Part shown: positions 4,181 through 20,459 of the stretch, piece after piece
How positions within the stretch are numbered: position 1 is the first letter of the stretch
Layout: the number at the start of each line of letters is the position of its first letter
Sequence record: MZ031013.1
Reading direction: 5' to 3' (one strand)
From: Escherichia phage vB_EcoA_fTuEco01
DNA: 44,320 nucleotides
Program-made: the position numbers and the translations under genes
Notes under the pieces: model-generated
What the model saw: only the letters and a program-made list of their open reading frames with translations
What the model was told of the DNA's origin: nothing
Databases searched by the model: none

Positions 4181-6808
4181 ATGCAAGACCTACACGCTAT
4201 TCAACTTCAACTTGAAGAAGAAATGTTTAACGGCGGTATCCGTCGCTTTGAAGCGGACCAACAACGCCAGATTGCATCCGGTAATGAATCAGACACGGCA
4301 TGGAATCGCCGTTTATTGTCCGAGTTAATCGCGCCAATGGCTGAAGGTATTCAGGCATACAAGGAAGAGTATGAAGGTAAAAGAGGCCGTGCACCGCGTG
4401 CATTAGCTTTCATTAACTGCGTAGAAAACGAAGTGGCAGCATATATCACGATGAAAATCGTTATGGATATGCTGAATACAGACGTTACCTTACAAGCAAT
4501 CGCTATGAATGTAGCGGACCGCATCGAAGACCAAGTACGTTTTAGCAAGCTGGAAGGTCACGCAGCTAAGTACTTTGAGAAAGTGAAGAAGTCGCTTAAG
4601 GCTAGCAAGACTAAATCTTATCGTCATGCGCACAACGTAGCGGTAGTAGCTGAGAAATCTGTTGCTGACCGTGACGCGGATTTCTCCCGTTGGGAGGCAT
4701 GGCCTAAAGATACCTTGCTACAAATCGGTATGACCTTGCTAGAAATACTGGAAAATAGTGTATTCTTCAATGGTCAGCCTGTCTTTCTTCGCACCTTGCG
4801 CACTAATGGTGGCAAGCATGGCGTTTACTACTTACAGACCAGTGAACACGTAGGGGAATGGATTACAGCATTTAAAGAACATGTAGCGCAACTTAGCCCG
4901 GCTTATGCACCTTGCGTTATACCTCCGCGTCCGTGGGTTTCTCCTTTTAATGGCGGTTTTCACACTGAGAAGGTAGCAAGTCGTGTGCGTCTTGTTAAAG
5001 GCAGCCGTGAACACGTCCGCAAGCTGACCAAAAAGCAAATGCCAGCGGTTTACAAGGCTGTTAACGCTTTGCAGGCGACTAAATGGCAGGTTAACAAGGA
5101 AGTTTTACAGGTTGTTGAGGACGTAATACGGCTTGATTTAGGCTATGGCGTACCTTCCTTCAAACCACTCATCGACCGCGAGAACAAGCCAGCTAATCCG
5201 GTGCCGTTAGAGTTCCAGCACCTGCGAGGCCGTGAACTGAAAGAAATGTTAACACCGGAACAATGGCAAGCCTTCATCAACTGGAAAGGTGAATGCACCA
5301 AGCTGTATACCGCTGAGACTAAGCGCGGCAGCAAATCGGCGGCGACCGTCCGCATGGTAGGGCAGGCCCGTAAATACAGCCAATTTGACGCAATATACTT
5401 CGTGTATGCTCTGGACAGCCGCAGCCGCGTCTACGCGCAATCTAGCACGCTCTCTCCGCAATCAAACGACTTAGGCAAGGCATTGCTCCGTTTTACCGAA
5501 GGGCAGCGTCTTGATAGCGCTGAGGCGCTTAAGTGGTTTTTGGTGAACGGGGCTAATAACTGGGGTTGGGATAAGAAAACTTTTGACGTGCGCACCGCTA
5601 ACGTGCTGGATAGTGAATTTCAAGACATGTGCCGCGACATTGCAGCGGATCCGCTGACCTTCACTCAATGGGTAAATGCCGACTCCCCTTACGGCTTCCT
5701 TGCATGGTGCTTTGAATATGCGCGTTATCTGGATGCACTGGATGAAGGCACGCAAGACCAATTCATGACGCACCTCCCAGTCCATCAAGATGGTAGTTGT
5801 TCTGGTATCCAGCACTACAGTGCTATGCTACGCGATGCAGTAGGTGCGAAAGCGGTAAACCTTAAGCCCTCTGACTCACCTCAAGATATTTATGGTGCCG
5901 TTGCGCAGGTAGTAATTCAGAAGAATTATGCATACATGAATGCAGAGGATGCGGAAACCTTCACTTCTGGCAGCGTGACTTTAACAGGTGCAGAACTTCG
6001 TAGCATGGCTAGTGCGTGGGATATGATAGGAATCACTCGCGGCCTGACCAAAAAGCCTGTAATGACACTACCTTATGGCAGCACACGTCTAACCTGCCGT
6101 GAATCAGTGATTGATTATATCGTTGATTTGGAAGAAAAAGAGGCCCAACGGGCTATTGCGGAAGGGCGTACCGCCAATCCTGTACATCCTTTTGATAATG
6201 ACCGCAAAGACAGCCTGACACCTAGCGCAGCTTATAACTATATGACAGCTTTAATCTGGCCTTCTATTTCGGAAGTGGTTAAAGCTCCTATAGTGGCAAT
6301 GAAAATGATTCGTCAGCTTGCACGTTTCGCAGCTAAAAGAAACGAAGGCTTAGAATATCCCTTACCAACTGGCTTCATCTTGCAACAAAAGATAATGGCT
6401 ACCGATATGCTCCGCGTATCCACTTGCTTGATGGGTGAAATCAAGATGAGTCTCCAGATTGAAACAGATGTAGTTGATGAAACGGCAATGATGGGTGCGG
6501 CTGCTCCTAACTTCGTCCATGGTCACGATGCTAGCCACCTGATTCTGACTGTATGTGACCTAGTGGATAAAGGTATTACATCCATTGCAGTCATCCATGA
6601 TTCTTTCGGTACTCATGCAGGACGTACCGCAGACCTGCGGGATAGCTTAAGGGAAGAAATGGTTAAGATGTATCAAAACCATAATGCCCTGCAAAACCTG
6701 CTAGATGTGCACGAAGAGCGTTGGTTAGTAGACACCGGAATCCAAGTACCAGAGCAAGGAGAGTTTGACCTTAACGAAATCTTAGTTTCAGACTATTGTT
6801 TCGCATAA
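4181..6808 (+). CDS. Single-subunit DNA-directed RNA polymerase (T7 gene 1-like), 875 aa
   Basis: [22 protein letters not shown] and the C-terminal ILVSDYCFA correspond to T7 RNAP motifs ([22 protein letters not shown], ...FAFA). Size is close to SP6 RNAP. Confidence 0.95.
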
Positions 6809-6924: not shown

Positions 6925-7065
6925 CGTCGGAGACGGGAAAGAAAGGGAAGATAAAGGATATAAAGGAAGTAATAGGTATTAAAGGTTATATAGGTTATCT
7001 AGGAATACCTAGGAATACCTATTACCTTCTTCCTTCCTCTTATTACCACTTAGAGGAAGGGCAGA
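6925..7065. other. Purine-rich / pyrimidine-rich AT-rich block with internal inverted repeat and tandem TAGGAATACC x2; candidate primary replication origin
   Basis: gggaaagaaagggaagataaaggatataaaggaagtaataggtatt ... aggaatacctaggaatacctattaccttcttccttcctcttattacc; the two halves are near reverse complements. The block is flanked by two phage promoters, as in the T7 primary origin downstream of gene 1. Confidence 0.45.
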
Positions 7066-7073
7066 CCTAGGTT

Positions 7074-7089
7074 GTCTCACATGTGAGAC
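7074..7089. repeat. Conserved palindrome GTCTCACATGTGAGAC, copy 2
   Basis: Perfect 16-bp palindrome, 5 nt upstream of the promoter at 7095. Confidence 0.8.
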
Positions 7090-7094
7090 TTCGT

Positions 7095-7115
7095 ATTTAC
7101 CGGACAGTATAGATA
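7095..7115 (+). promoter_or_regulatory. Phage RNAP promoter variant (ATTTACCGGACAGTATAGATA)
   Basis: Consensus match with C to G at -7 and a deviant initiating region. Confidence 0.6.
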
Positions 7116-7142
7116 AGATTAACTCACTTTGGAGATTTAACC

Positions 7143-7271
7143 ATGCGTAACTTTGAGAAGATGGCCCGTAAAGCTAACCGTTTTGACATAGAAGAAGGGC
7201 AGAAGAAAGGCAAGAAGCTGAATAAGCCTGTCCGTGACCGTACATCTAAACGCGCAGCGTGGGAGTTCTAA
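7143..7271 (+). CDS. Hypothetical small basic protein, 42 aa
   Basis: ATG at 7143, basic composition (MRNFEKMARKANRF...). Under 60 aa, so not in the track. Confidence 0.4.
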   Translation: MRNFEKMARKANRFDIEEGQKKGKKLNKPVRDRTSKRAAWEF

Positions 7272-7274
7272 GTT

Positions 7275-9263
7275 ATGGCTATTATTCAGAATGTACCGTG
7301 TCCTGCTTGCCAAAAGAACGGACATGATATTACTGGCAATCATTTAATGATCTTTGACGACGGGGCAGGATACTGTAACCGTGGTCACTTCCATGATAAC
7401 GGTAAACCTTATTACCACAAGCCAGGGGGTGGCATCGAGATAACCGAATTGCCTATTACTGGCAATATCAAATATACACCTTCTCAATTCAAAGAAATGG
7501 AGAAGGAAGGGAAGGTAAGCGACCCTAAGTTGCGCGCCATCGCACTTGGTGGTATGCGTATGAAAGACCGTTGGGAGGTTATGAATGAGCAAGAAAGGGC
7601 AGACCAAGAAGCAGAGTGGAAACTTGATGTTGAATGGTTCCTCACGCTTAAGCGTAAGAATCTTGTTTCCCGACACATTCGCGGCGACATTTGCGCATTG
7701 TATGATGTACGTGTCGGACACGATGAAGATGGTAGAGTCTCACGGCATTACTATCCACGCTTCGAGAAAGGTGAGCTAGTAGGCGCTAAGTGTCGCACAT
7801 TACCTAAAGACTTTAAGTTTGGTCATTTAGGTAAACTCTTTGGTATGCAAGATCTTTTCGGTATGAATACTTTGTCTCACGTGTTAGACAAGGGAAGACG
7901 AAAGGATTGCTTGCTTATTGTAGGTGGTGAACTTGATGCACTAGCAGCACAGCAAATGCTCCTTGATTCTGCCAAGGGTACTAAGTGGGAAGGCCAGCCT
8001 TACCATGTATGGTCTGTCAATAAAGGTGAGTCTTGCCTTGAAGAGATAGTACAGAACCGTGAACACATCGCCCAATTTAAGAAGATTATATGGGGTTTTG
8101 ATGGCGACGAGGTGGGGCAGAAGCAGAATCAGCAAGCGGCTCGCCTGTTTCCTGGCAAATCCTATATCCTTGAATACCCTTCTGGTTGCAAAGATGCTAA
8201 CAAGGCATTGATGGCTGGCAAGGCTAAAGAGTTTGTTGATGCTTGGTTTAATGCCAAGTCATCTGATGAAGTCTTTGGTAGCCAGATTAAATCTATCGCA
8301 TCTCAAAGGGATAAGCTCAAGGCTGCACGTCCAGAGCAAGGACTATCATGGCCTTGGCCTAAGCTGAACAAGGTAACGCTAGGTATTCGTAAGAACCAGC
8401 TTATCATTGTAGGTGCAGGTTCTGGTGTAGGTAAGACTGAGTTCCTCCGCGAAGTGGTTAAACATCTCATTGAAGAGCACGGTGAATCTGTAGGCATCAT
8501 TTCTACAGAAGACCCGATGGTCAAGGTGTCCCGTGCTTTTATCGGTAAGTGGATTGATAAGCGCATTGAGTTACCGCCAACCAATGACCCGAAAGAAGAC
8601 GGATACCGTGAGGTGTTCGACTACACCGAGGAAGAAGCTAACGCTGCCATTGATTATGTGGCTGATACAGGAAAGCTATTTGTGGCTGACCTAGAAGGCG
8701 ACTATTCTATGGAGAAGGTAGAGCAAACTTGCCTAGAGTTTGAGGCTATGGGCATTTCTAATATCATCATTGATAACTTAACGGGGATTAAATTAGATGA
8801 GCGTGCTTTTGGTGGGAAGGTTGGTGCACTTGATGAATGCGTCAAACGAATTGGTACTATCAAAGACCGACATGCGGTTACGATTTTCCTTGTCTCTCAC
8901 CTTACACGTCCTCCGGCAAACCGTACCCAACACGAAGAAGGTGGCGAAGTTATCCTTTCTGACTTCCGAGGCTCAGGCGCTATCGGATTCTGGGCATCTT
9001 ACGCCTTGGGGATTGAGCGTAATACAAGAGCTGAAACGCTTGATGAAAGGACTACCACGTACATCTCGTGTGTCAAAGACCGCGATCAAGGTATCTACAC
9101 TGGAACCAAGGTCATGCTTAAGGGTGACATTCAAACCGGACGTTTAATGGAACCACAAGCTAGAACAAGGTCATTTGATACAGGTGAAACAAGGCAGCAA
9201 GAGGTGCCTGATTTACCGGACACTATAGAAGAGACAACCTTTGACGATGAACAGGAGTTTTAA
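7275..9263 (+). CDS. DNA primase/helicase (T7 gene 4-like), 662 aa
   Basis: N-terminal zinc ribbon CPACQ...CNRGH; Walker A GAGSGVGKTEF; acidic C-terminus DDEQEF ending in Phe, as in T7 gp4 (...TDF). Confidence 0.95.
   Translation: MAIIQNVPCPACQKNGHDITGNHLMIFDDGAGYCNRGHFHDNGKPYYHKPGGGIEITELPITGNIKYTPSQFKEMEKEGKVSDPKLRAIALGGMRMKDRWEVMNEQERADQEAEWKLDVEWFLTLKRKNLVSRHIRGDICALYDVRVGHDEDGRVSRHYYPRFEKGELVGAKCRTLPKDFKFGHLGKLFGMQDLFGMNTLSHVLDKGRRKDCLLIVGGELDALAAQQMLLDSAKGTKWEGQPYHVWSVNKGESCLEEIVQNREHIAQFKKIIWGFDGDEVGQKQNQQAARLFPGKSYILEYPSGCKDANKALMAGKAKEFVDAWFNAKSSDEVFGSQIKSIASQRDKLKAARPEQGLSWPWPKLNKVTLGIRKNQLIIVGAGSGVGKTEFLREVVKHLIEEHGESVGIISTEDPMVKVSRAFIGKWIDKRIELPPTNDPKEDGYREVFDYTEEEANAAIDYVADTGKLFVADLEGDYSMEKVEQTCLEFEAMGISNIIIDNLTGIKLDERAFGGKVGALDECVKRIGTIKDRHAVTIFLVSHLTRPPANRTQHEEGGEVILSDFRGSGAIGFWASYALGIERNTRAETLDERTTTYISCVKDRDQGIYTGTKVMLKGDIQTGRLMEPQARTRSFDTGETRQQEVPDLPDTIEETTFDDEQEF
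9211..9231 (+). promoter_or_regulatory. Phage RNAP promoter embedded in the 3' end of the primase/helicase gene
   Basis: ATTTACCGGACACTATAGAAG is a perfect consensus; in frame it encodes LPDTIEE. Confidence 0.7.
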
Positions 9264-9424
9264 TGGAAATTATTAAACCAGTATTGAATATCGGTATTGA
9301 AATCCTATTCATGCTTGTGATCGCAGATTATGCTGCACGATATGGATTCAAGAAAGCTGTGAAACTTATCGTTGCATCTGGTTTTATGATGTCAATGTTC
9401 TTTATTGTAACACGCCTTATCTAG
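9263..9424 (+). CDS. Hypothetical small membrane protein, 53 aa, two hydrophobic segments
   Basis: TAATG stop-start overlap with the helicase gene; ILFMLVIADYA and SGFMMSMFFIV hydrophobic stretches. Confidence 0.45.
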   Translation: MEIIKPVLNIGIEILFMLVIADYAARYGFKKAVKLIVASGFMMSMFFIVTRLI

Positions 9425-9437
9425 TGTATTTATCAGG

Positions 9438-9461
9438 GCTTGTCTCACATGTGAGACAGGC
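9438..9461. repeat. Conserved palindrome (gcttGTCTCACATGTGAGACaggc), copy 3, extended stem followed by a T-rich run
   Basis: Core 9442..9457 is perfect; the flanks extend the stem to about 10 bp; followed by TCTTATT. Terminator-like. Confidence 0.7.
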
Positions 9462-9496
9462 TCTTATTAAGTACATTAAATAACTGGAGATTGATT

Positions 9497-10180
9497 ATGT
9501 ATAAATTAGTATTGAATGCAGGTGATTATGTTCGTAACATCAATGCAACCTCACGTAGATATCGTTGCCGTGGTACTGTGACTAATGTAAGTGAAAACAG
9601 CTACTATGTAGAGTACAGTAATGGTATTAGACAGGCTTATCAAAAGGAATCAGCACATAACTACCTTGAGAAGATTGGAGAGGTAAGCAATCAATGTAAG
9701 TGCGTACACGATGAGATTTGCGATAAGTGTGCCCGCCAGATGCATAAAATGCTATTATACCCTCTTCGCTATGGTGCTGGCATTCAAACCTTAGCAGAGG
9801 CATATGGCAAAGGTAAGACTACACTTAATAAAGATCGCCGCAATGTAATCACTGGTAAGACTCAAAGTGAAATGATTAAGCAGTGTGGCACTGCACTAGG
9901 TGTTACGCAGTTTAACACTCGTGCTCTTGGTAAATCCACAGGACAAGCTATGGTAAAGATTGGCGAAGCCATGATGCATCCAAATGTACCTGTGCGAATC
10001 ATGGATGTTGACCATGCAATCACAGAACACGGTACACCACGACGTGTAGCTAATAAGCATTTTGCCGACACTATAGAAGGTGTTATCCGTAAGCAAGGGT
10101 TGAAAGGTCTTCACCTCTTGAATGGTGAAGAATTACTGTATCTCCCTATTGTTACTGAAGAAACCTACGTGAATATTTAA
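9497..10180 (+). CDS. Hypothetical protein, 227 aa, Cys-cluster (CKCVHDEICDKC), possible zinc-binding / DNA-binding
   Basis: ATG at 9497 with GGAGA upstream (the track starts at a TTG at 9491). An embedded promoter-like core lies at 10058..10079. Confidence 0.55.
   Translation: MYKLVLNAGDYVRNINATSRRYRCRGTVTNVSENSYYVEYSNGIRQAYQKESAHNYLEKIGEVSNQCKCVHDEICDKCARQMHKMLLYPLRYGAGIQTLAEAYGKGKTTLNKDRRNVITGKTQSEMIKQCGTALGVTQFNTRALGKSTGQAMVKIGEAMMHPNVPVRIMDVDHAITEHGTPRRVANKHFADTIEGVIRKQGLKGLHLLNGEELLYLPIVTEETYVNI
10058..10079 (+). promoter_or_regulatory. Weak phage-type promoter embedded in coding sequence (TTTTGCCGACACTATAGAAGG)
   Basis: Core CGACACTATAGAAG is conserved, the upstream AT-rich recognition region is degenerate; in frame it encodes ADTIEG. 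Confidence 0.35.
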
Positions 10181-10190
10181 GGAGTTAATC

Positions 10191-10406
10191 GTGACTAAAG
10201 TTCTAATTTATAAACAACGAGGTCTTAAGGCTTATGCTATTGTAGCACCAAATGGTGTTAAAAAAGTAAGTTGTAAGCCTCTTGCAATAAAAGGTGCAGG
10301 TATGTCTGCTAACTTCCAATTGCAACTTTTTGGCAATTTCACAGAAGCGCAATTCCGCAATAAACATGAAGTTATTGGTTCTTTTATGGTGAAACATGCA
10401 GAATAA
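10191..10406 (+). CDS. Hypothetical protein, 71 aa
   Basis: GTG start 7 nt after an AAGGAG RBS. Confidence 0.5.
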   Translation: MTKVLIYKQRGLKAYAIVAPNGVKKVSCKPLAIKGAGMSANFQLQLFGNFTEAQFRNKHEVIGSFMVKHAE

Positions 10407-10605
10407 ACACAGCCTTAAGATGTTTGATGGTCACGAAGACCTGCAAGCACACATCACTAACCAAGCCTTCCTGTTTGCACAGTTAACTATGGCTGAAGCA
10501 AAGAAGAATAGCCTGACACGCGAGCAGGTTATCAAGGAGGCTACTTGGGAGCCACACCAAGGTAAATATATGGGCCATAAATTAACTGTAACACGCAGTC
10601 GATAA
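10396..10605 (+). CDS. Hypothetical protein, 69 aa
   Basis: ORF track entry; overlaps the upstream gene by 11 nt. Confidence 0.45.
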   Translation: MQNKHSLKMFDGHEDLQAHITNQAFLFAQLTMAEAKKNSLTREQVIKEATWEPHQGKYMGHKLTVTRSR

Positions 10606-10611
10606 GTCAAG

Positions 10612-10635
10612 GGTTGTCTCACACGTGAGACAGCC
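10612..10635. repeat. Conserved palindrome variant (ggttGTCTCACACGTGAGACagcc), copy 4
   Basis: Stem arms gtctca and tgagac are conserved, with a CACG centre variant. Confidence 0.65.
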
Positions 10636-10662
10636 TTTCATCATGTTGATTGGAGGTGCATT

Positions 10663-10770
10663 ATGCCACGTGATTATGATTCTGATTGGGACTACTATGA
10701 CTCAATGAATCCAAAACCCGAACGTTCAGATGATTACTACGAAACAGAGGCAATGTATGAAGATTACTGA
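10663..10770 (+). CDS. Hypothetical small acidic protein, 35 aa (MPRDYDSDWDYYDSM...)
   Basis: ATG at 10663 with a GGAGGTG RBS. Under 60 aa. Confidence 0.35.
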   Translation: MPRDYDSDWDYYDSMNPKPERSDDYYETEAMYEDY

Positions 10771-13303
10771 TTGGAAGAAGGAGGCAAAAGGCCGTATCCT
10801 AGTAATGGATGCGGAGGCTAAAGGTCTGCTTGATGCCATCCGATATGGACACCGCGAAGATGTGCATATCATTTGCTGCATGGACTTGCTTACTACTGAG
10901 GAGTTCCTCTTCTTTGACCCATATGAGATGCGTGACCCTGAAGCAAGGGAGCGCCTGAAGGAATGGGAAGGGCATCAAGATGGTGACTTGGTTGATGGTG
11001 TTAACTTCCTGAAGCACTGTGAAGCTATCGTGTCACAGAACTTCCTAGGATATGACGGTCTTCTCTTTGAGAAAGCATTCCCTGCTATCTGGAAAGGTTT
11101 TAACTATACCGAGAGGCGAGGCAAGGGCAGACTCCGCGCTGACCTGTGTCCTGTGCGAGTCATGGACACGCTGGTGATGAGTCGCCTGTTAAACCCCGAT
11201 AGGCGCCTCCCTCCGCAAGCATACGCCAAAGGTATGGGTAACGTCGCCCCTCACTCAATTGAGGCGCACGGCATTCGTATAGGCCGTTATAAGCCGGAGA
11301 ACGAGGATTGGTCTAAACTAACTGACCACATGGTACATCGTGTACGCGAGGACGTGGCGATAGGCCGTGACCTATTCCTCTGGCTATTTAACGGAGAATG
11401 GACGGAGCACAAACGCCGTGGCGTGAATAAACGCACTGGCCTAGGTATTGAGACAGCCTTCCACATGGAGTCCATTGTGGCGCTGGAGATGAGCCGTCAG
11501 GCCGAGCGTGGATTCCGTCTGGATATAGATAAAGCATTAGCACGATGCGAGGAATTGGACGCTAAGATTGATGAGACAGTCGCAGCGTTCCGTCCGCACA
11601 TGCCTATGCGTATCAAGTCTAAACCTTTTAAACCGGAAGAAAAGAATGAAGTATGCCAACGCGCAAATGAGTATGGAGCTAGCAACAATATACCTACTGT
11701 TCTTGACCCCTCTCACTTTCTTCACGCAGAGAGACGAGGGGATCGCAAGACAGTATGGAGTGTCACTACTAAGTCTGGTGATTGGTCGGCTAGCGTCAAG
11801 AAAGACTTTCCTCACCTTAGAGGAAACCGTAATGACACGCCAAGCATCAAGTGGATTGGCGCTTACTCGCCTGTTACTTTCGAAGAAATTCCCTTGGGTA
11901 ACAGGGATACAGTTAAGCAAGTGCTCTATGATTATGGATGGAAAGGTGTTGAATTTAACGATACCGAGCAAGCGCATCTCGATGAGCATGGCGTATTACC
12001 CAAGCCTTGGAGTGGGAAGATAAATGAAAAGTCCCTTACTTTATGGCAAGAGAGAGCCGCACGTGAAGGTAAAACAGTCCCTGATTGGTGCTTGGGTATC
12101 GCTGCATGGTACATACTCGTATCCCGTCGTGGTCAGATCCTCAACCGTGGTGACGTTGAAGCCTTCGACCAGAAGGGGGTGTGGCCTTCGCAAGCTGGTA
12201 TACGAAAGTGTCGCGGCCTTGTACCTGTAGCATTTAACAAGGAGTTAGGAATCAATGCGCAGCAATACTACGAAAGGTACGGATGCTGGCCTACGTCAGA
12301 CAAGGATGACGGAGAATGGCGTGTGCCAGCTATTGCTATTAGTATTGGAACTTCTACGTTCCGTATGCGTCATCGTAACGTGGTTAATATTCCTGCCCGT
12401 GGTTTGTATCCTTTACGTGATTTATTCATAGCCGGTAAAGGTAAGCTAATCCTTGGTTGTGATGGTGCTGGTCTTGAACTACGTGTCCTGTCTCACTTCA
12501 TGAATGACCCTGAATATCAAGATATTGTACTGCATGGTGACATTCACACCCATAATCAAATGAAGGCTGGTCTTCCTAAGCGTGACATGGCGAAGACATT
12601 TATATATGCCTTCCTATATGGGTCTGGTATAGCTAACCTTGCAGCAGTATGTGGTGTTACTGAGGAAGAAATGGAGGAAGTTGTGGCAAGATTTGAGGTT
12701 GAACTACCATCTCTTGCACGTCTTCGTGAGAATGTTATCGCACAAGGTAACAAGTTTGGCTACCTACAAGCACCTGATGGTCATTGGGGTCGCATCCGTA
12801 TGTCTGGTGGTGAACTTAAAGAGCACACTATGCTTAACGTACTACTACAGATGACTGGTTCTCTGTGTATGAAATACGCATTGGTCAGAGCGTTTGCAGT
12901 GATGCGCAAGGAAGGTGTGGCCTTAGATAGCATGGGAAACCCTTGCGGTATAGCTAACGTGCACGATGAAATCCAGATGGAAGTCCCTGAAGATGAGGTC
13001 TTGTATCTCAACTACGACTTGCCTTTCACCTTAGAAGGGTTCGAAACAGAGAAGGCTGCTGTGAAAGCAGTGTTCGATGCAGAGGAGAAACGTGTTCATG
13101 TAGATTCTGAAGGACGTATGTGGTCTGCTGCAAATCTCGTTAGCGTTGATGCTGATGCTGGTGTACTTCATTGCCAGCGTCGCTATCACCGTGCAGGGCA
13201 TATCATTGCCGACGCAATGACTTGGGCGGGTCAGTATCTGAAGATGCGTTGTCCGATGGCAGGTGAGTATAAGATTGGTGCAAGTTGGAAGGAAACACAC
13301 TGA
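10757..13303 (+). CDS. DNA polymerase, family A (T7 gene 5-like), about 848 aa
   Basis: 3'-5' exonuclease motif (ILVMDAEAKG), pol motif A (DGAGLELRVLSHF), motif B (KTFIYAFLYGSG) and motif C (VHDEIQMEV). Start chosen at ATG 10757 (MKITDW); the track starts upstream at 10730. Confidence 0.93.
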   Translation: MKITDWKKEAKGRILVMDAEAKGLLDAIRYGHREDVHIICCMDLLTTEEFLFFDPYEMRDPEARERLKEWEGHQDGDLVDGVNFLKHCEAIVSQNFLGYDGLLFEKAFPAIWKGFNYTERRGKGRLRADLCPVRVMDTLVMSRLLNPDRRLPPQAYAKGMGNVAPHSIEAHGIRIGRYKPENEDWSKLTDHMVHRVREDVAIGRDLFLWLFNGEWTEHKRRGVNKRTGLGIETAFHMESIVALEMSRQAERGFRLDIDKALARCEELDAKIDETVAAFRPHMPMRIKSKPFKPEEKNEVCQRANEYGASNNIPTVLDPSHFLHAERRGDRKTVWSVTTKSGDWSASVKKDFPHLRGNRNDTPSIKWIGAYSPVTFEEIPLGNRDTVKQVLYDYGWKGVEFNDTEQAHLDEHGVLPKPWSGKINEKSLTLWQERAAREGKTVPDWCLGIAAWYILVSRRGQILNRGDVEAFDQKGVWPSQAGIRKCRGLVPVAFNKELGINAQQYYERYGCWPTSDKDDGEWRVPAIAISIGTSTFRMRHRNVVNIPARGLYPLRDLFIAGKGKLILGCDGAGLELRVLSHFMNDPEYQDIVLHGDIHTHNQMKAGLPKRDMAKTFIYAFLYGSGIANLAAVCGVTEEEMEEVVARFEVELPSLARLRENVIAQGNKFGYLQAPDGHWGRIRMSGGELKEHTMLNVLLQMTGSLCMKYALVRAFAVMRKEGVALDSMGNPCGIANVHDEIQMEVPEDEVLYLNYDLPFTLEGFETEKAAVKAVFDAEEKRVHVDSEGRMWSAANLVSVDADAGVLHCQRRYHRAGHIIADAMTWAGQYLKMRCPMAGEYKIGASWKETH

Positions 13304-13420
13304 TGGACAGGTTTGATATTGTTTGCCTATTCTCCACCTTCTTTCTTATATTCCTTATGCTTGCTTGCTATGGAAGTATGCGATTAGATATACCTGATGA
13401 AGAGGAGGGTTACGATTGAT
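13304..13420 (+). CDS. Hypothetical hydrophobic peptide, 38 aa
   Basis: TGATG overlap with the polymerase stop; FSTFFLIFLMLACY transmembrane-like segment. Confidence 0.3.
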
Positions 13421-13517
13421 GCAGGCATCTTTTATTATTCTTGGAGTCATATTATTTATGGTAGTATTCTGGGCTTTCTCTGGCATTGACCCAGATTGTG
13501 ATGGTAACTACGACTGA
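13419..13517 (+). CDS. Hypothetical hydrophobic peptide, 32 aa
   Basis: TGATG overlap with the previous ORF; IILGVILFMVVFWAF transmembrane-like segment. Confidence 0.3.
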   Translation: MQASFIILGVILFMVVFWAFSGIDPDCDGNYD

Positions 13518-13585
13518 GTTATACTCAAGGTCACTTACGAGTGGCCTTTATGAATAACTTATTCCTACTTATTTTGTCTAACATG

Positions 13586-13606
13586 ATTTACTGGACACTA
13601 TAGAAG
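13586..13606 (+). promoter_or_regulatory. Phage RNAP promoter (ATTTACTGGACACTATAGAAG)
   Basis: Perfect consensus. Confidence 0.8.
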
Positions 13607-13607
13607 G

Positions 13608-13672
13608 AAAGCCTAGGTAATCTAGGTTTATAAGGTAGTATAGGTAATTAAGTAAATATAGGAGATATAAAT
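13608..13672. repeat. AT-rich TAGGTWA-repeat block downstream of a promoter
   Basis: gcctaggtaatctaggtttataaggtagtataggtaattaagtaaatataggagat; similar blocks occur at 6961..7020 and 38650..38702. Confidence 0.5.
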
Positions 13673-14050
13673 ATGTCTATGGTAACTACTCTGGTATTCG
13701 TGGCTCAATACTTTCGTGGTCTTGCTAATAAGTTCAAGTCCAAGGCTATCAAAGCTATTGAGGCTCGCATCGAAGCAGTACAGGCAGAGCAAGTTAAAGT
13801 TGAAGAACATCGTAGTTCTCAAATGATTGACTGTCATAACCGCTACTATGCATCTCGTGATGAACTAAATGCACGTCAAGTCAAAGAGGTAGAAGATATG
13901 CTGGCACGTCACCAGCAAGAGCGTGACAGCCTGAAAGCTGAATTTGAAGAGAACAAGGCATCAATTGCCCTTGTAAATCAAGCTGCATCTGACAGCCTGA
14001 AGAAAGAGATTGTTATGCTGGAAATAGAACTGGACAACTTGACTAAATAA
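13673..14050 (+). CDS. Hypothetical coiled-coil protein, 125 aa
   Basis: Strong T7 gene-10-like RBS (ataggagatataaatATG); heptad-like charged sequence. Confidence 0.6.
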   Translation: MSMVTTLVFVAQYFRGLANKFKSKAIKAIEARIEAVQAEQVKVEEHRSSQMIDCHNRYYASRDELNARQVKEVEDMLARHQQERDSLKAEFEENKASIALVNQAASDSLKKEIVMLEIELDNLTK

Positions 14051-14056
14051 GGAGTT

Positions 14057-14356
14057 ATGATGGAAGAAGTGATTCAAGCTAAACATGTAGGTATCATCTT
14101 TCGTGATCTAGAGCAGCGTAAAGTTGCAGGTCACACTCGTCTGGCTAAAGAAGACGATACAGCAATCACTACTGTGGAACAAGCAGATGCCTATCGTGGT
14201 CCAGAGTTTACTCAAGGTGAAACTTGTCATCAATTGAGCCTTTCGCTTTGTGACACTATGGCTAGTGTAAATGTACAAGAGGTTGAAGATGGTGAATGTG
14301 TTAGTTATGTCTACCCTCTCGATACTATTGCACGTATTAAGGTAGTTCATAAGTAA
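14057..14356 (+). CDS. Hypothetical protein, about 98-99 aa
   Basis: AAGGAG RBS; ATG at 14057 or 14060. Confidence 0.55.
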   Translation: MMEEVIQAKHVGIIFRDLEQRKVAGHTRLAKEDDTAITTVEQADAYRGPEFTQGETCHQLSLSLCDTMASVNVQEVEDGECVSYVYPLDTIARIKVVHK

Positions 14357-14375
14357 TTACTGGACACTATAGAAC
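14355..14375 (+). promoter_or_regulatory. Phage RNAP promoter (AATTACTGGACACTATAGAAC)
   Basis: Consensus match; overlaps the stop codon of the upstream ORF. Confidence 0.7.
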
Positions 14376-14433
14376 AATAGGTCGGCTTAGTTCGGCCTAT
14401 GATTGTGTAGTGTAACAATAGGAGACTAAATAA

Positions 14434-15240
14434 ATGGCACGTGGTGATTTTGATTTTGGTGCTCAGGTTACTAAAGCTGAAGGTAAAGTATTTAAGAACC
14501 CTGAAGTTGGTGATCATGAAGCAGTAATCTCTGGCATCATTCATGTTGGTTCCTTCCAAGATATCTTTAAGAAAGGTAATACCACTGAAGTTAAGAAGCC
14601 AGCAAACTTTGTTCTTGTTAAAATTACCCTGATGGGCGACGATGACAAGAATGAAGATGATTCTCGCATGGAACAGTGGATGGCTGTGCCCTTGAAGTCT
14701 GGTGACAAGGCAACTCTTACTAAGTTCCTGAATGCAGTGGACCCTAAAGAATTGCTGGGTGGCTTCGATGATTTCATCGGTGAATGTCTGACTGCAACTA
14801 TGGTTGGCTCTGGTGATAAGAATGACGATGGCTCATTCAAGTATGTTAACTGGAAAGGATTTGGTGGTATGCCTGACAAGCTGAAGAAACTGGTCATTGC
14901 TCAGGTAGAAGAGGAAGGTCTGTCTATGACAGGTCATATCACCTTCGACAAGCTGACCAAAGAAATCCTTGATGACATCCCAGCTAACTTGGTACGTCAA
15001 TACTTCCTGAACGAGACACCTCGTGGTAAGAACCTGTCTGTTGCTGGCTCTCACGTAGAAGCTATTATCAAAGCTGCTCGTGAAGAAGACCCTGAATGGA
15101 AGAAGGCTAAGAAGAAAGACGAGGAAGATGCTACCCCAGCTAATCGTAAATCTCTGGATACTGGTGAGCCTGTTCCACAGGAAGTACCTGAAGCAGAAGA
15201 TACTCCTGCACCGGAGATGGATGAGGACGCGGAATATTAA
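14434..15240 (+). CDS. Putative ssDNA-binding protein (T7 gp2.5-like role), 268 aa, acidic C-terminal tail ending in Tyr
   Basis: Highly expressed codon usage and a C-terminal acidic tail ...EMDEDAEY resembling the T7 gp2.5 tail (...DEDGDF), in the replication module. Functional assignment is by analogy only. Confidence 0.4.
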   Translation: MARGDFDFGAQVTKAEGKVFKNPEVGDHEAVISGIIHVGSFQDIFKKGNTTEVKKPANFVLVKITLMGDDDKNEDDSRMEQWMAVPLKSGDKATLTKFLNAVDPKELLGGFDDFIGECLTATMVGSGDKNDDGSFKYVNWKGFGGMPDKLKKLVIAQVEEEGLSMTGHITFDKLTKEILDDIPANLVRQYFLNETPRGKNLSVAGSHVEAIIKAAREEDPEWKKAKKKDEEDATPANRKSLDTGEPVPQEVPEAEDTPAPEMDEDAEY

Positions 15241-15249
15241 GGAGAACGG

Positions 15250-15468
15250 ATGAAAGTACAAATCGTAACTCTGCATTGCAAGAAAGGAATCACCACACTT
15301 GGCGGCAATACTTTTCACTCCTTCTCTGAAGGGGAGACATACGCCGACCTTCACTATATCTGGCGTGACGGGCAGCACGTGGTGAACTACAGCGACCCTG
15401 CGACTGGTAAACGCCACGGCGTGTCGCTTCCGGCGCATGACATTGCTCAGGTGAACACAGTTTTATAA
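15250..15468 (+). CDS. Hypothetical protein, 72 aa
   Basis: ORF track entry with a GGAGAACGG RBS. Confidence 0.5.
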   Translation: MKVQIVTLHCKKGITTLGGNTFHSFSEGETYADLHYIWRDGQHVVNYSDPATGKRHGVSLPAHDIAQVNTVL

Positions 15469-15469
15469 A

Positions 15470-15485
15470 GTCTCACGTGTGAGAC
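15470..15485. repeat. Conserved palindrome variant GTCTCACGTGTGAGAC, copy 5
   Basis: Arms are conserved with a CGTG centre; 15 nt upstream of the promoter at 15501. Confidence 0.7.
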
Positions 15486-15500
15486 AAATCGGTGTCCGGT

Positions 15501-15523
15501 ATTTACTGGACACTATAGAAGAG
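15501..15523 (+). promoter_or_regulatory. Phage RNAP promoter (ATTTACTGGACACTATAGAAGAG)
   Basis: Perfect consensus. Confidence 0.8.
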
Positions 15524-15573
15524 AAGAATTTTAATCGGCGATAATGCCATAACCAACAAAAGGAGAATTTAAT

Positions 15574-15945
15574 ATGTTCAAGATTGAAACTATCGTAAAC
15601 CGTGTTGTTAAAGGTGCTACTCTGGTATCCGTTGAGTCTTTCATTATCGTCGATGAAGCTGATCAACTGGTAGCTGGTACTAAGGCTTACGATACCCGTG
15701 AAGAAGCTCAGGCTAAGATTGACAGCATGGGTAACTTCGCTGCTGGTCTGGAGTTTGCTCGTGCTTGCTTCCCTGAGCAGGCTGACAAAGCCCAGATCGG
15801 TAAGGCTAACATCGTAGCTGAATATCTGGATTGGATTGCTGCTGGTAAACCAGTGAAAGAAGTTAAAGCTGCTGAAGAAGCTGAAGCTCCGGCAGTAGAA
15901 GTGTCTGCACCGGAAGCTCCGGTTAGCGAAGAGGAAGAGTTTTGA
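15574..15945 (+). CDS. Hypothetical abundant protein, 123 aa, acidic C-terminal tail ending in Phe (...SEEEEF)
   Basis: AAGGAG RBS, codon usage typical of highly expressed genes, and a strong terminator downstream. Tail resembles the replisome-docking tails of T7 gp2.5 and gp4. Confidence 0.55.
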   Translation: MFKIETIVNRVVKGATLVSVESFIIVDEADQLVAGTKAYDTREEAQAKIDSMGNFAAGLEFARACFPEQADKAQIGKANIVAEYLDWIAAGKPVKEVKAAEEAEAPAVEVSAPEAPVSEEEEF

Positions 15946-16003: not shown

Positions 16004-16037
16004 GCCCTGTCTGCCTTAGTGTAGGCAGGGTCTTTTG
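16004..16037 (+). terminator. Rho-independent terminator
   Basis: gccctgtctgcc / ggcaggg stem of about 8 bp (one G-U pair) followed by TCTTTTG. Confidence 0.55.
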
Positions 16038-19211: not shown

Positions 19212-19328
19212 ATGACTTGTCCTAATTGTGGAAGTGAAGAAACAGAACATGTAGTTATGTCAGATACTTATCATTTCTATTTCTGTCATAACTGCGACAC
19301 TACCATTGAAGAGGAAGAAGCTGTATGA
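19212..19328 (+). CDS. Small zinc-ribbon protein, 38 aa (CPNCG ... CHNCD)
   Basis: Two CxxC pairs spaced for a zinc ribbon; ATGA overlap with the ligase start. Confidence 0.4.
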   Translation: MTCPNCGSEETEHVVMSDTYHFYFCHNCDTTIEEEEAV

Positions 19329-20272
19329 ATATCTTTGAGTTCCTAGGTCTTCCAGAAGATCACCGCAATCACCCATTCATGCTAGTGAAACATCGCGGTG
19401 AAGTCCCTGAGAAGAAACTTACTTTTCCCTGTTATGCACAGGTGAAACGAGATGGTATCTTTTCTGCTGTTGTTGTTCGCACTGATGGTGTCGTTGGCAT
19501 TTTTGGTCGCACTGGTAAGAAACTGGCAAACACTGAAGTCCTCGAACAAACATTTGCTACCTTTCCGGTTGGCATTTATCTTGGTGAGCTTCAGTCTATG
19601 GCCGTTGATATCTACCTTGAAGCTCTATCAGGGGTGGTAAATCCTAATCGTACAGAGCCGCTTGACTTTATAGGCCAGCAGATTAAAGACAAACTGTATA
19701 TCGACTTCTTCGATATGTTAACCATTAAGGCATTCCATGATGGATTCACTGATGTTTCTTATCTCAAACGTTACGATGCTTTACATCGTCGCATCGGCAC
19801 TCATCTTAGCGGGTACAACGCTATCCTTCCTATTACTCCTTGCCATAATGAGCGAGAAGTTGAAGCGTTTGCGCAAGAGCAAATAGATGCAGGCCGAGAG
19901 GGTGCTGTGTTTAAGCTGGACTGTGATTATGAAGCAGGCCACAAAGGTTATCGTCAGACTAAAGAAGTTCGTAAGGTAACTTATGACCTTACTTGTATTG
20001 GCTTTGAAGAAGGCAAGGGTAAATACAAAGGTAAGGTAGCTAACCTCATTTTCAAATGGAAAGGAGGCAAGACAATCAAAGCTATGTTAGGTAAAGGGTG
20101 GACTCATGCAGATGCAGAACAGATGTTCCACGATATTAAACATGGCGGGCGATTGAATGTCATTGGTAAAATCTTTGAAGTAAAAGGTCTTCAGGATTCA
20201 AGCAAGGGCAACATTCGTCTGCCCAAAGCGGGAGAATTAAGACATGACAAAGATGAACCAGATTTCTTTTGA
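19325..20272 (+). CDS. ATP-dependent DNA ligase (T7 gene 1.3-like), 315 aa
   Basis: Nucleotidyltransferase motif I (AQVKRDG, cf. T7 EIKYDG) and an EGAVFK motif IV-like block; size is typical of minimal phage ligases. Confidence 0.8.
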   Translation: MNIFEFLGLPEDHRNHPFMLVKHRGEVPEKKLTFPCYAQVKRDGIFSAVVVRTDGVVGIFGRTGKKLANTEVLEQTFATFPVGIYLGELQSMAVDIYLEALSGVVNPNRTEPLDFIGQQIKDKLYIDFFDMLTIKAFHDGFTDVSYLKRYDALHRRIGTHLSGYNAILPITPCHNEREVEAFAQEQIDAGREGAVFKLDCDYEAGHKGYRQTKEVRKVTYDLTCIGFEEGKGKYKGKVANLIFKWKGGKTIKAMLGKGWTHADAEQMFHDIKHGGRLNVIGKIFEVKGLQDSSKGNIRLPKAGELRHDKDEPDFF

Positions 20273-20459
20273 TTCCATGAAGGCAACTCGTGCCGTTGAG
20301 GTGGCAGAGGCTATCTTTGAAACTCTATCTTGTGGCATGGAAGTGCCATATACTTTACTGGCTGATGCAGAAGAACTTGGTCTTTCTGTAGAAGCTATCC
20401 AAGAGAAGGTTGAAGAACTCTATGGTACAGACGAAGAAGAAACCGACTATTTCATTTGA
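20244..20459 (+). CDS. Hypothetical acidic protein, 71 aa
   Basis: GGGAGA RBS before ATG 20244; overlaps the ligase 3' end. Confidence 0.45.
   Translation: MTKMNQISFDSMKATRAVEVAEAIFETLSCGMEVPYTLLADAEELGLSVEAIQEKVEELYGTDEEETDYFI

Follow-up and report, generated by a model that had tools for sequence, protein, structure and literature searches.

The stretch of DNA analysed here (44,320 nucleotides of Escherichia phage vB_EcoA_fTuEco01, sequence record MZ031013.1; hereafter the window, taken at its full length) contains a replication module in which three proteins, a primase-helicase and two small proteins of 268 and 123 amino acids (aa), end in acidic tails closed by an aromatic residue. These tails and their bearers are the subject of this report. 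The source DNA is a K1E-like Vectrevirus genome (Autographiviridae, Molineuxvirinae, SP6 group), and 2.5 kb at the locus are 98% identical to Vectrevirus phages of Escherichia (K1E, AAPEc6, vB_EcoP_B, and others). The primase-helicase (662 aa; gene product 9, or gp9, in the K1E numbering) is encoded at 7275–9263 and unites a Toprim primase and a DnaB-type helicase in one chain (Pfam Toprim_2 and DnaB_C, PHROG 239); it is a homologue of T7 gp4 (BLASTP with gp4A: 25% identity over 459 aa, E = 2e-29). The family A DNA polymerase (K1E gp13; 10730–13303; Pfam DNA_pol_A) is a homologue of T7 gp5 (BLASTP: 34% identity over 242 aa, E = 1e-31). The 268-aa protein (K1E gp16, SP6 gene 16, phrog_862) is encoded at 14434–15240 and the 123-aa protein (K1E gp18, SP6_20, phrog_4429) at 15574–15945; all four genes lie on the plus strand. 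The order polymerase, 268-aa protein, 123-aa protein, exonuclease is kept in eight annotated phages, and the neighbours of the 268-aa gene include the genes for the exonuclease and endonuclease VII. Both small proteins are “hypothetical” in the RefSeq annotation of AAPEc6. In 215 matched phage records the 268-aa gene is given as “hypothetical protein” or left unannotated, and an SSB (single-stranded DNA-binding protein) is named in none of them (0/215).

The earlier note on this DNA had described the three tail bearers and their ends, and all of them are present in the sequence: ...TFDDEQEF in the helicase, ...EMDEDAEY in the 268-aa protein and ...VSEEEEF in the 123-aa protein. A start at position 9240, as given in that note, leaves just the final codons of the helicase gene inside the region. 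The helicase terminus closes a low-complexity acidic linker of about 37 residues (nucleotides ~9150–9260). The acidic tail of the 268-aa protein comprises residues 229–268 (15118–15237, plus strand) and has a net charge of −13. In the 123-aa protein, a conserved domain (residues 1–95) is followed by an Ala/Glu/Pro-rich linker of variable length and an invariant S-x-EEEF tip.

The rarity of such ends was assessed with a simple rule: the last residue is F, Y or W, at least four of the last eight residues are D or E, and K, R and H are absent from them. Of the 269 open reading frames (ORFs) that measure 40 aa or more, both strands included, just three passed the rule, and these are the tail bearers named above. 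When eight residues per protein were sampled randomly for all 54 likely proteins (20,000 draws), 0.034 passes were expected per genome, and three passes were reached in none of the 20,000 draws. In T7, among the 12 early and middle proteins that were read, such ends occur only in gp2.5 (...EDGDF) and gp4 (...DTDF).

The ends are also strongly conserved. In the 268-aa family, 131 of the 141 full-length members, down to about 28% identity, have F or Y as the last residue, and in the remaining 10 an F occupies position −2 or −3. The last seven positions follow the pattern [LM]-D-[DE]-[DE]-[EQ]-E-[FY], with E before the terminal aromatic residue in 125 of the 131, and the approximately 30 residues before the motif vary freely. 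The EEEF end of the 123-aa protein is found in all 120 relatives among the matches listed (120/120). In a search of 1.84 billion representative proteins this family formed 24 clusters (at 50% identity), about 19 of which have a terminal or near-terminal F. The helicase has an aromatic terminus in 8/8 annotated relatives and in nearly all relatives from IMG/VR, and this end is kept at 42–82% identity across Molineuxvirinae, Colwellvirinae and Gajwadongvirus. At the level of sequence, these comparisons confirm the three termini and their conservation, and the termini behave as one short C-terminal motif under selection. The motif would consist of an acidic run followed by Phe or Tyr at the carboxyl end or no more than two residues from it.

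The opposite explanation, that the endings resemble each other by chance or as a by-product of composition, draws on the fact that acidic low-complexity ends are frequent in phage proteins, and three further examples occur in the window. An Ocr-like anti-restriction protein (2377–2748, phrog_2568) ends in a pure acidic run without an aromatic residue, which shows that acidic ends alone exist elsewhere in this genome; the small proteins at 13285–13419 (...DIPDEEEGYD; with a hydrophobic start, possibly a membrane peptide) and 20244–20459 (...DEEETDYFI) have acidic ends with an aromatic residue near the terminus but not at it. We regard the probability of this explanation as negligible: it has to contend with the simulation, and the terminal aromatic residue is kept in well above 100 relatives of each protein while the residues next to it vary, so that the conservation data effectively refute it. 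A 42-aa basic ORF directly 5′ of the helicase gene (7143–7271, K1E gp8) ends in E-F (...KRAAWEF) and has no acidic run.

The termini of the three proteins were further compared across eight annotated phages (Molineuxvirinae, Colwellvirinae, Gajwadongvirus) and 26 IMG/VR loci. The acidic aromatic end is nearly constant in the helicase and in the homologues of the 268-aa and 123-aa proteins. Pseudomonas phages of one clade have the aromatic residue shifted inward by one or two positions in both small proteins, and two of these phages show the shift in the helicase as well; Aeromonas phage MJG has Y at the end of all three proteins. For the 268-aa and 123-aa proteins, the cross-classification of terminal and internal aromatic residues gives 19/2/0/5 (Fisher p = 3e-4, with kinship ignored). 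The direction of the joint shift is the one that a common receptor would predict.

Which of the two small proteins could be the SSB was addressed by structure prediction. The earlier note had listed both as candidates for the SSB or another polymerase-docking factor, had held that sequence could not decide between them and had proposed a search for an OB (oligonucleotide/oligosaccharide-binding) fold by structure prediction. Run on both proteins, this prediction sets them apart after all: the candidacy of the 268-aa protein is upheld by a predicted OB-fold core and by the solved folds nearest to it, which are binders of single-stranded DNA (ssDNA), whereas that of the 123-aa protein is not, since no OB fold was predicted for it, at low confidence.

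Modelled with AlphaFold2 on an alignment of 29 sequences (predicted local distance difference test, pLDDT, 78.5; predicted template modelling score 0.72), the 268-aa protein is predicted to consist of a disordered N-terminal arm (residues 1–18) with a conserved FDFGA, an OB-fold core (~19–145), a helical subdomain (146–228) and the disordered tail (229–268, pLDDT below 50). The core, with a pLDDT of about 90, is predicted to form an OB barrel of five strands in which a helix follows strand 3 and precedes strand 4; the model has strands at 26–47, 50–53, 57–66 and 80–86, helices at 94–102 and 111–114, and further strands at 118–129 and 135–144. The nearest solved folds, PrgE, LEF-3 and RPA, are all ssDNA binders. 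In a Foldseek comparison with the PDB, an RPA subunit from an ssDNA complex came first (probability 0.94, with weak E-values), and bacterial SSB and PriB stood lower in the list. The best solved structural match of the protein is PrgE (PDB 8s4s). Among the predicted viral structures of BFVD, DUF669 proteins and Xp10 37L lie near the model (E from 1e-10 to 3e-4), together with proteins of Pseudomonas (P3_CHA), Ralstonia and Acinetobacter phages; one of the BFVD neighbours is annotated as SSB, and further ones are uncharacterised proteins from other podoviruses.

In searches at the level of sequence and profile, the 268-aa family showed no relation to T7 gp2.5 by hhalign (profiles A1 and A3, probability 0.07–0.09%) or to the N4 SSB (probability at most 0.3%), and Pfam DUF669 was matched by none of 29 family members at E ≤ 1. 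Neither gp2.5 nor Enc34 among the PDB sequences was matched by phmmer or hmmsearch, and searches of PDB sequences with the 268-aa and 123-aa proteins, as single sequences and as profiles, returned noise only (e.g., antibody light chains and TraR). Membership in a gp2.5-like family or in DUF669 was thus rejected. Since gp2.5 homology is lacking, the resemblance to T7 would reside in how the protein works and not in family membership. A probable distant homologue was found in ORF21 of phiKMV (positions 8043–9092 of locus L040; hhalign with A3, E = 3e-4, 177 columns), which has no Pfam match and occupies the same position as the 268-aa gene, between the polymerase and the 5′-3′ exonuclease.

On the strength of the model, we propose with moderate confidence that the 268-aa protein is the replicative SSB of the phage, and with similarly moderate confidence that its family represents a separate OB-fold lineage with a gp2.5-like tail. 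No other SSB of the window came to light when its early and middle proteins were scanned against Pfam and PHROG. In the literature searched on SP6-type phages, which did not include the original SP6 genome paper, we found no identification of an SSB and no study of the replisome. A “putative ssDNA binding protein” annotated in the Pectobacterium phage PP99 (locus L009, 4173–4643) adjoins the helicase; it matches YpsA/SLOG (E = 5e-14; DprA-like), is not an OB-fold SSB, has no counterpart in the window and was rejected as a competing SSB.

A protein with an OB fold may also serve another end. PrgE of plasmid pCF10 binds double-stranded DNA (dsDNA) besides ssDNA, equally well, and is not essential for conjugation (PMC11137577). 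The 268-aa gene has a recombination neighbourhood, with genes for the exonuclease and endonuclease VII beside it, a distant kinship of DUF669 proteins with annealing proteins has also been described (PMC9145550), and T7 gp2.5 itself is annotated as binding and annealing ssDNA. The 268-aa protein might accordingly be an annealing or recombination mediator, or a general coat for DNA with affinity for dsDNA as well, with the host SSB acting at the fork. We consider this rather improbable: it leaves the window with no other SSB found, the 268-aa protein is present in every relative examined, its own promoter and capsid-level codon bias fit a coat protein, and its tail matches that of the helicase, as in T7. 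Replicative and annealing roles are, moreover, not exclusive.

The proposed SSB can be set beside several known systems. T7 gp2.5 is of similar size (232 vs. 268 aa), is encoded in a replication module of the same T7 type, has an OB-fold core (predicted in the 268-aa protein) followed by a disordered, acidic, aromatic-ended tail (...EADEDGDF vs. ...EMDEDAEY), and is very abundant, as the expression signals suggest for the 268-aa protein. The two differ in the lack of detectable sequence or profile similarity (hhalign below 0.1%) and in gene position, with the gp2.5 gene before the helicase gene and the 268-aa gene after that of the polymerase. A helical subdomain and a conserved N-terminal arm are further features that set the 268-aa protein apart, and a terminal Tyr is as acceptable in it as Phe. 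T4 gp32 has an N-terminal segment for contacts with neighbouring subunits, followed by an ssDNA-binding core. Its acidic C-terminal domain serves partner proteins (PMC5892887). The 268-aa protein would have the same three-part layout and differs from gp32 in the details of the core fold. PrgE coats DNA as monomers, and its N-terminal tail contacts the neighbouring subunit (PMC11137577). It is related to SSBs of lactococcal phages and, with 144 aa and its binding of dsDNA besides ssDNA, differs from the 268-aa protein; both have an N-terminal extension, which in the 268-aa protein is conserved and predicted to be disordered. By analogy with PrgE, one may speculate that the arm with its FDFGA contacts neighbouring subunits on DNA.

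Kazlauskas, Krupovic and Venclovas (2016) linked the N4 SSB to DUF669 and described viral DUF669 proteins as highly diverged OB-fold SSBs, arguing for this function from their acidic tails and from genomes without another SSB (PMC4889955). The 268-aa protein resembles this group, whose members are phage proteins of roughly 250 aa from genomes without a known SSB and, in the case of DUF669, have acidic tails (PMC4889955), and DUF669 and phiKMV-like/Xp10 proteins are structural neighbours of its model. In phiKMV-like phages, DUF669 proteins belong to a replication module with the polymerase and the 5′-3′ exonuclease (PMC9145550). The difference lies in the absence of a DUF669 hidden Markov model match and of an hhalign signal to the N4 SSB, whose end (...KSLFGKK) is not acidic.

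The genes of both small proteins are accompanied by signals of high expression. Perfect-consensus phage promoters begin at 13588, 14357 and 15503; these are three of the six in the window, and all lie within 2 kb. The one before the 268-aa gene (14357–14375, plus strand; TTACTGGACACTATAGAAC) has no mismatch to the window's own consensus, and the one before the 123-aa gene (15503–15521, plus strand) is identical to the promoter of the major capsid gene. The 123-aa gene has the ribosome-binding site AAGGAG and is followed by a terminator-like hairpin (16004–16037, plus strand) with an 11-bp GC-rich stem and then CUUUUG, whose fold energy is −35 kcal/mol vs. −23.7 for shuffled sequences (z = −3.6). 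The fraction of optimal (E. coli-preferred) codons is 0.76 in the 123-aa gene and 0.65 in both the capsid and the 268-aa genes, against a median of 0.50 over 54 genes; the 123-aa gene ranks first, the capsid gene second, the 268-aa gene third and the gene for K1E gp15 fourth. To judge from these signals, transcription in the middle region seems to be heaviest across the segment 13588–16037. The word “abundant”, which the earlier note had applied to the 123-aa protein, agrees well with its promoter, ribosome-binding site, hairpin and codon rank (1/54). Promoter, terminator and codon profile together suggest a protein needed in bulk and neither an enzyme nor a one-to-one cofactor of the polymerase.

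No match to the 123-aa protein was found in Pfam, NCBIfam or PDB sequences, and its PHROG matches are to uncharacterised families only. Compared with 24 early and middle T7 proteins, including gp5.5, gp5.7 and gp5.9, its family reached a probability of 1.3% at best, and a relationship to a small T7 protein was rejected. The AlphaFold2 model (shallow alignment of 33 sequences, pLDDT 59.6) has three short strands followed by three helices, with no barrel, and residues 92–123 are disordered; the net charge of the core is −3. The 123-aa gene always lies between the 268-aa homologue and the exonuclease. At loci without a homologue detectable by BLAST, its place between the genes for the 268-aa protein and the exonuclease is taken by a protein of 85–100 aa, which ends in ...ADEDF, ...APEEF, ...EAEDF or ...EAETF, and the short and long forms align with each other (hhalign E = 6.5e-4, probability 28%).

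That the 123-aa protein is itself the SSB, or a second one, and the 268-aa protein something else, could be argued from its SSB-like tail and from its gene, which looks more highly expressed than any other in the replication region. We hold this to be very improbable, given the predicted three strands and three helices in place of a five-stranded barrel (at low confidence), the acidic core, the lack of any structural or sequence link to a DNA-binding family, and the confidently predicted OB fold of the adjoining 268-aa protein. More probably the 123-aa protein is not an SSB but a small, abundant one, needed in bulk and not in catalytic amounts, which bears its tail on a flexible linker; it would most likely occupy, or compete for, a docking site as an accessory or regulatory factor. 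As a tentative extension, which we favour less than we doubt, it may be an abundant free-standing part of the replisome within a network of tails, its tip, of the kind also borne by the helicase and the SSB, being its main functional element and competing by mass action for the polymerase site or for the DNA-binding groove of the SSB. Such a tip would tune polymerase exchange, the unloading of the SSB, or the switch between replication and recombination.

The same expression signals (codon rank 1, consensus promoter, terminator) would also fit a protein directed against the host, either as a bulk inhibitor, as T7 gp5.5 is for H-NS, or as a decoy of the tip of the host SSB (...DDDIPF) that sequesters host proteins with affinity for that tail. 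The gene lies between those of the polymerase and the exonuclease, where T7 has gp5.5 and gp5.9, its product is acidic overall, and no homologue of known function turned up in Pfam, NCBIfam, PHROG or PDB sequences. This possibility appears unlikely to us, although it should be taken seriously. The family has no profile similarity to the small T7 proteins, gp5.5, gp5.7 and gp5.9 included, and it always accompanies the 268-aa gene. Its terminus, furthermore, changes together with those of the SSB candidate and the helicase in phages of Escherichia, Vibrio, Pseudomonas, Marinomonas and Aeromonas; joint changes across such differing hosts point to a receptor encoded by the phage.

T7 gp4 and gp2.5 reach the DNA polymerase through their acidic tails (see the works cited in PMC10359462, among them Hamdan et al. 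2005). The polymerase encoded here is the putative receptor, and its residues 685–699 (HWGRIRMSGGELKEH; 12782–12826, plus strand) form a candidate basic docking patch. They align with the front basic patch of T7 gp5 (K587/K589/R590/R591) and, in an alignment of 14 members, are the most basic conserved 15-residue segment (mean net charge +4.6), with the sequence DGRWGRIRRKxGK in relatives. This segment agrees with the T7 docking model without demonstrating it, and by analogy the polymerase is the most likely shared docking site of the tails. The aligned patch is stronger in T7 gp5. The two polymerases differ further in the region that we take to be the thioredoxin-binding loop of T7 gp5, which is unaligned, and in length, that of fTuEco01 being longer by about 150 residues. 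The helicase here and T7 gp4, which are homologous, share an acidic end closed by Phe (...DDEQEF vs. ...SNDTDF).

Alternatively, the tails could be mainly self-directed, each folding onto a basic surface of its own protein or of a partner in order to control DNA binding or to keep the protein soluble, in which case the likeness of the three would be a shared physical solution and not the mark of a shared receptor. The T7 gp2.5 tail is reported to stabilise the dimer in solution, to regulate the binding and release of ssDNA and to contact other replisome proteins (PMC10359462), and the basic patch of the polymerase is weak in fTuEco01. We nevertheless judge this explanation decidedly improbable. 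Self-inhibition needs no invariant E-[FY] end on three unrelated folds, and it would leave unexplained why the aromatic residue shifts jointly in the two small proteins (in two phages, in the helicase also). With its net charge of −3, the core of the 123-aa protein offers no obvious basic surface to its own tail. In T7, self-directed and docking roles coexist in any case.

Taken together, these lines of evidence lead us to consider it probable, with due reserve, that the SP6/K1E group shares one docking motif among a helicase, an SSB (the 268-aa protein) and an accessory or regulator (the 123-aa protein). In such a replication module, the tails would dock several proteins on a shared basic site, as those of T7 gp4 and gp2.5 do, most likely on the DNA polymerase and possibly also in the DNA-binding groove of the SSB. 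The E. coli SSB tip (...DDDIPF) is an acidic run with a C-terminal Phe, placed on a disordered linker, which recruits many partners. There, one tip serves many receptors; here, the same kind of tip is borne by several proteins and presumably serves one receptor.

Several points weigh against this assignment of roles. The patch of the fTuEco01 polymerase keeps only R688, R690 and K697 and is weaker than in the relatives or in T7. The joint shift of the tails stems from one or two evolutionary events. The cores of the 268-aa and 123-aa proteins are both acidic, and the 268-aa family, as tested with 29 members for DUF669, is without profile similarity to gp2.5 or the N4 SSB and without a DUF669 match. 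An OB fold is in itself no proof of a replicative SSB, because PrgE binds dsDNA too and is non-essential. The C-terminal approximately 100 residues of phiKMV ORF21 are rich in Pro, Ala and Val and are not acidic, so the acidic tail is not universal in the wider 268-aa family. The statement that the 123-aa protein has no OB fold is provisional, because its model is of low confidence.

The DNA ligase is a possible fourth bearer of the motif, to judge from its sequence. This ATP-dependent enzyme (19325–20272, plus strand; PHROG 114) ends in ...RHDKDEPDFF, a weaker terminus of the D-[FY] type. Its relatives end in D-F or D-Y in 7/8 annotated phages and in many IMG/VR loci, and in D-V in others; the T7 ligase is without such an end. 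Only six residues follow the conserved RxDK, which we take to be ligase motif VI, and the end may consequently belong to the fold of the OB domain, which makes the ligase a weak lead. The IMG/VR loci L024, L025 and L027–L033, which have the short form of the 123-aa protein, show a different set of conserved termini, namely D-V in the ligase and [ST]-[FY]-P-x (e.g., ...GSFPL and ...SSYPL) in the 5′-3′ exonuclease.

Phage therapy against Klebsiella, Salmonella and E. coli K1 makes wide use of SP6, K1E, K1-5 and their many relatives, and a probable SSB in the 268-aa family would fill a gap in the replication module of the whole subfamily, adding a separate OB-fold lineage that reached the same tail as T7 gp2.5. 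If the 123-aa protein does act as a competitor, the SP6/K1E group would run a T7-style network of tail competition with at least three bearers, possibly four with the ligase. Three or four bearers, in a set that differs from that of T7, would offer a natural system for the T7 model of tail competition at a single basic site of the polymerase. Of all genes of the phage, that of the capsid included, the one for the 123-aa protein appears to be expressed most strongly.

Some minor observations concern neighbouring genes. Many records give K1E gp15 (13673–14050, 125 aa), whose gene combines a consensus promoter with high codon bias, the name “polysaccharide chain length determinant protein”. The sole support for this name is a weak, coiled-coil-like match to TIGR03007 (20.7 bits vs. 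a cut-off of 279), and the name is probably an annotation artefact. The 268-aa gene is flanked by genes for proteins of 99 aa (14057–14356) and 72 aa (15250–15468) that look like paralogues and share a C-terminal pattern; the 72-aa protein also matches phrog_8057, and in relatives a single copy of about 90 aa often separates the 268-aa gene from the 123-aa gene. In AAPEc6, the homologue of the 99-aa protein bears the label “DNA-dependent RNA polymerase”, surely a mis-annotation. In Colwellvirinae phages, the helicase gene is followed by genes for proteins of about 150 aa (154, 154 and 146 aa) without a Pfam match. In Erwinia phage phiEa100 (locus L005, 4703–7699), the polymerase gene is annotated in two parts (4703–6568 and 7046–7699) with a small ORF between them, and a gene for an HNH nuclease (7717–8196) comes after it.

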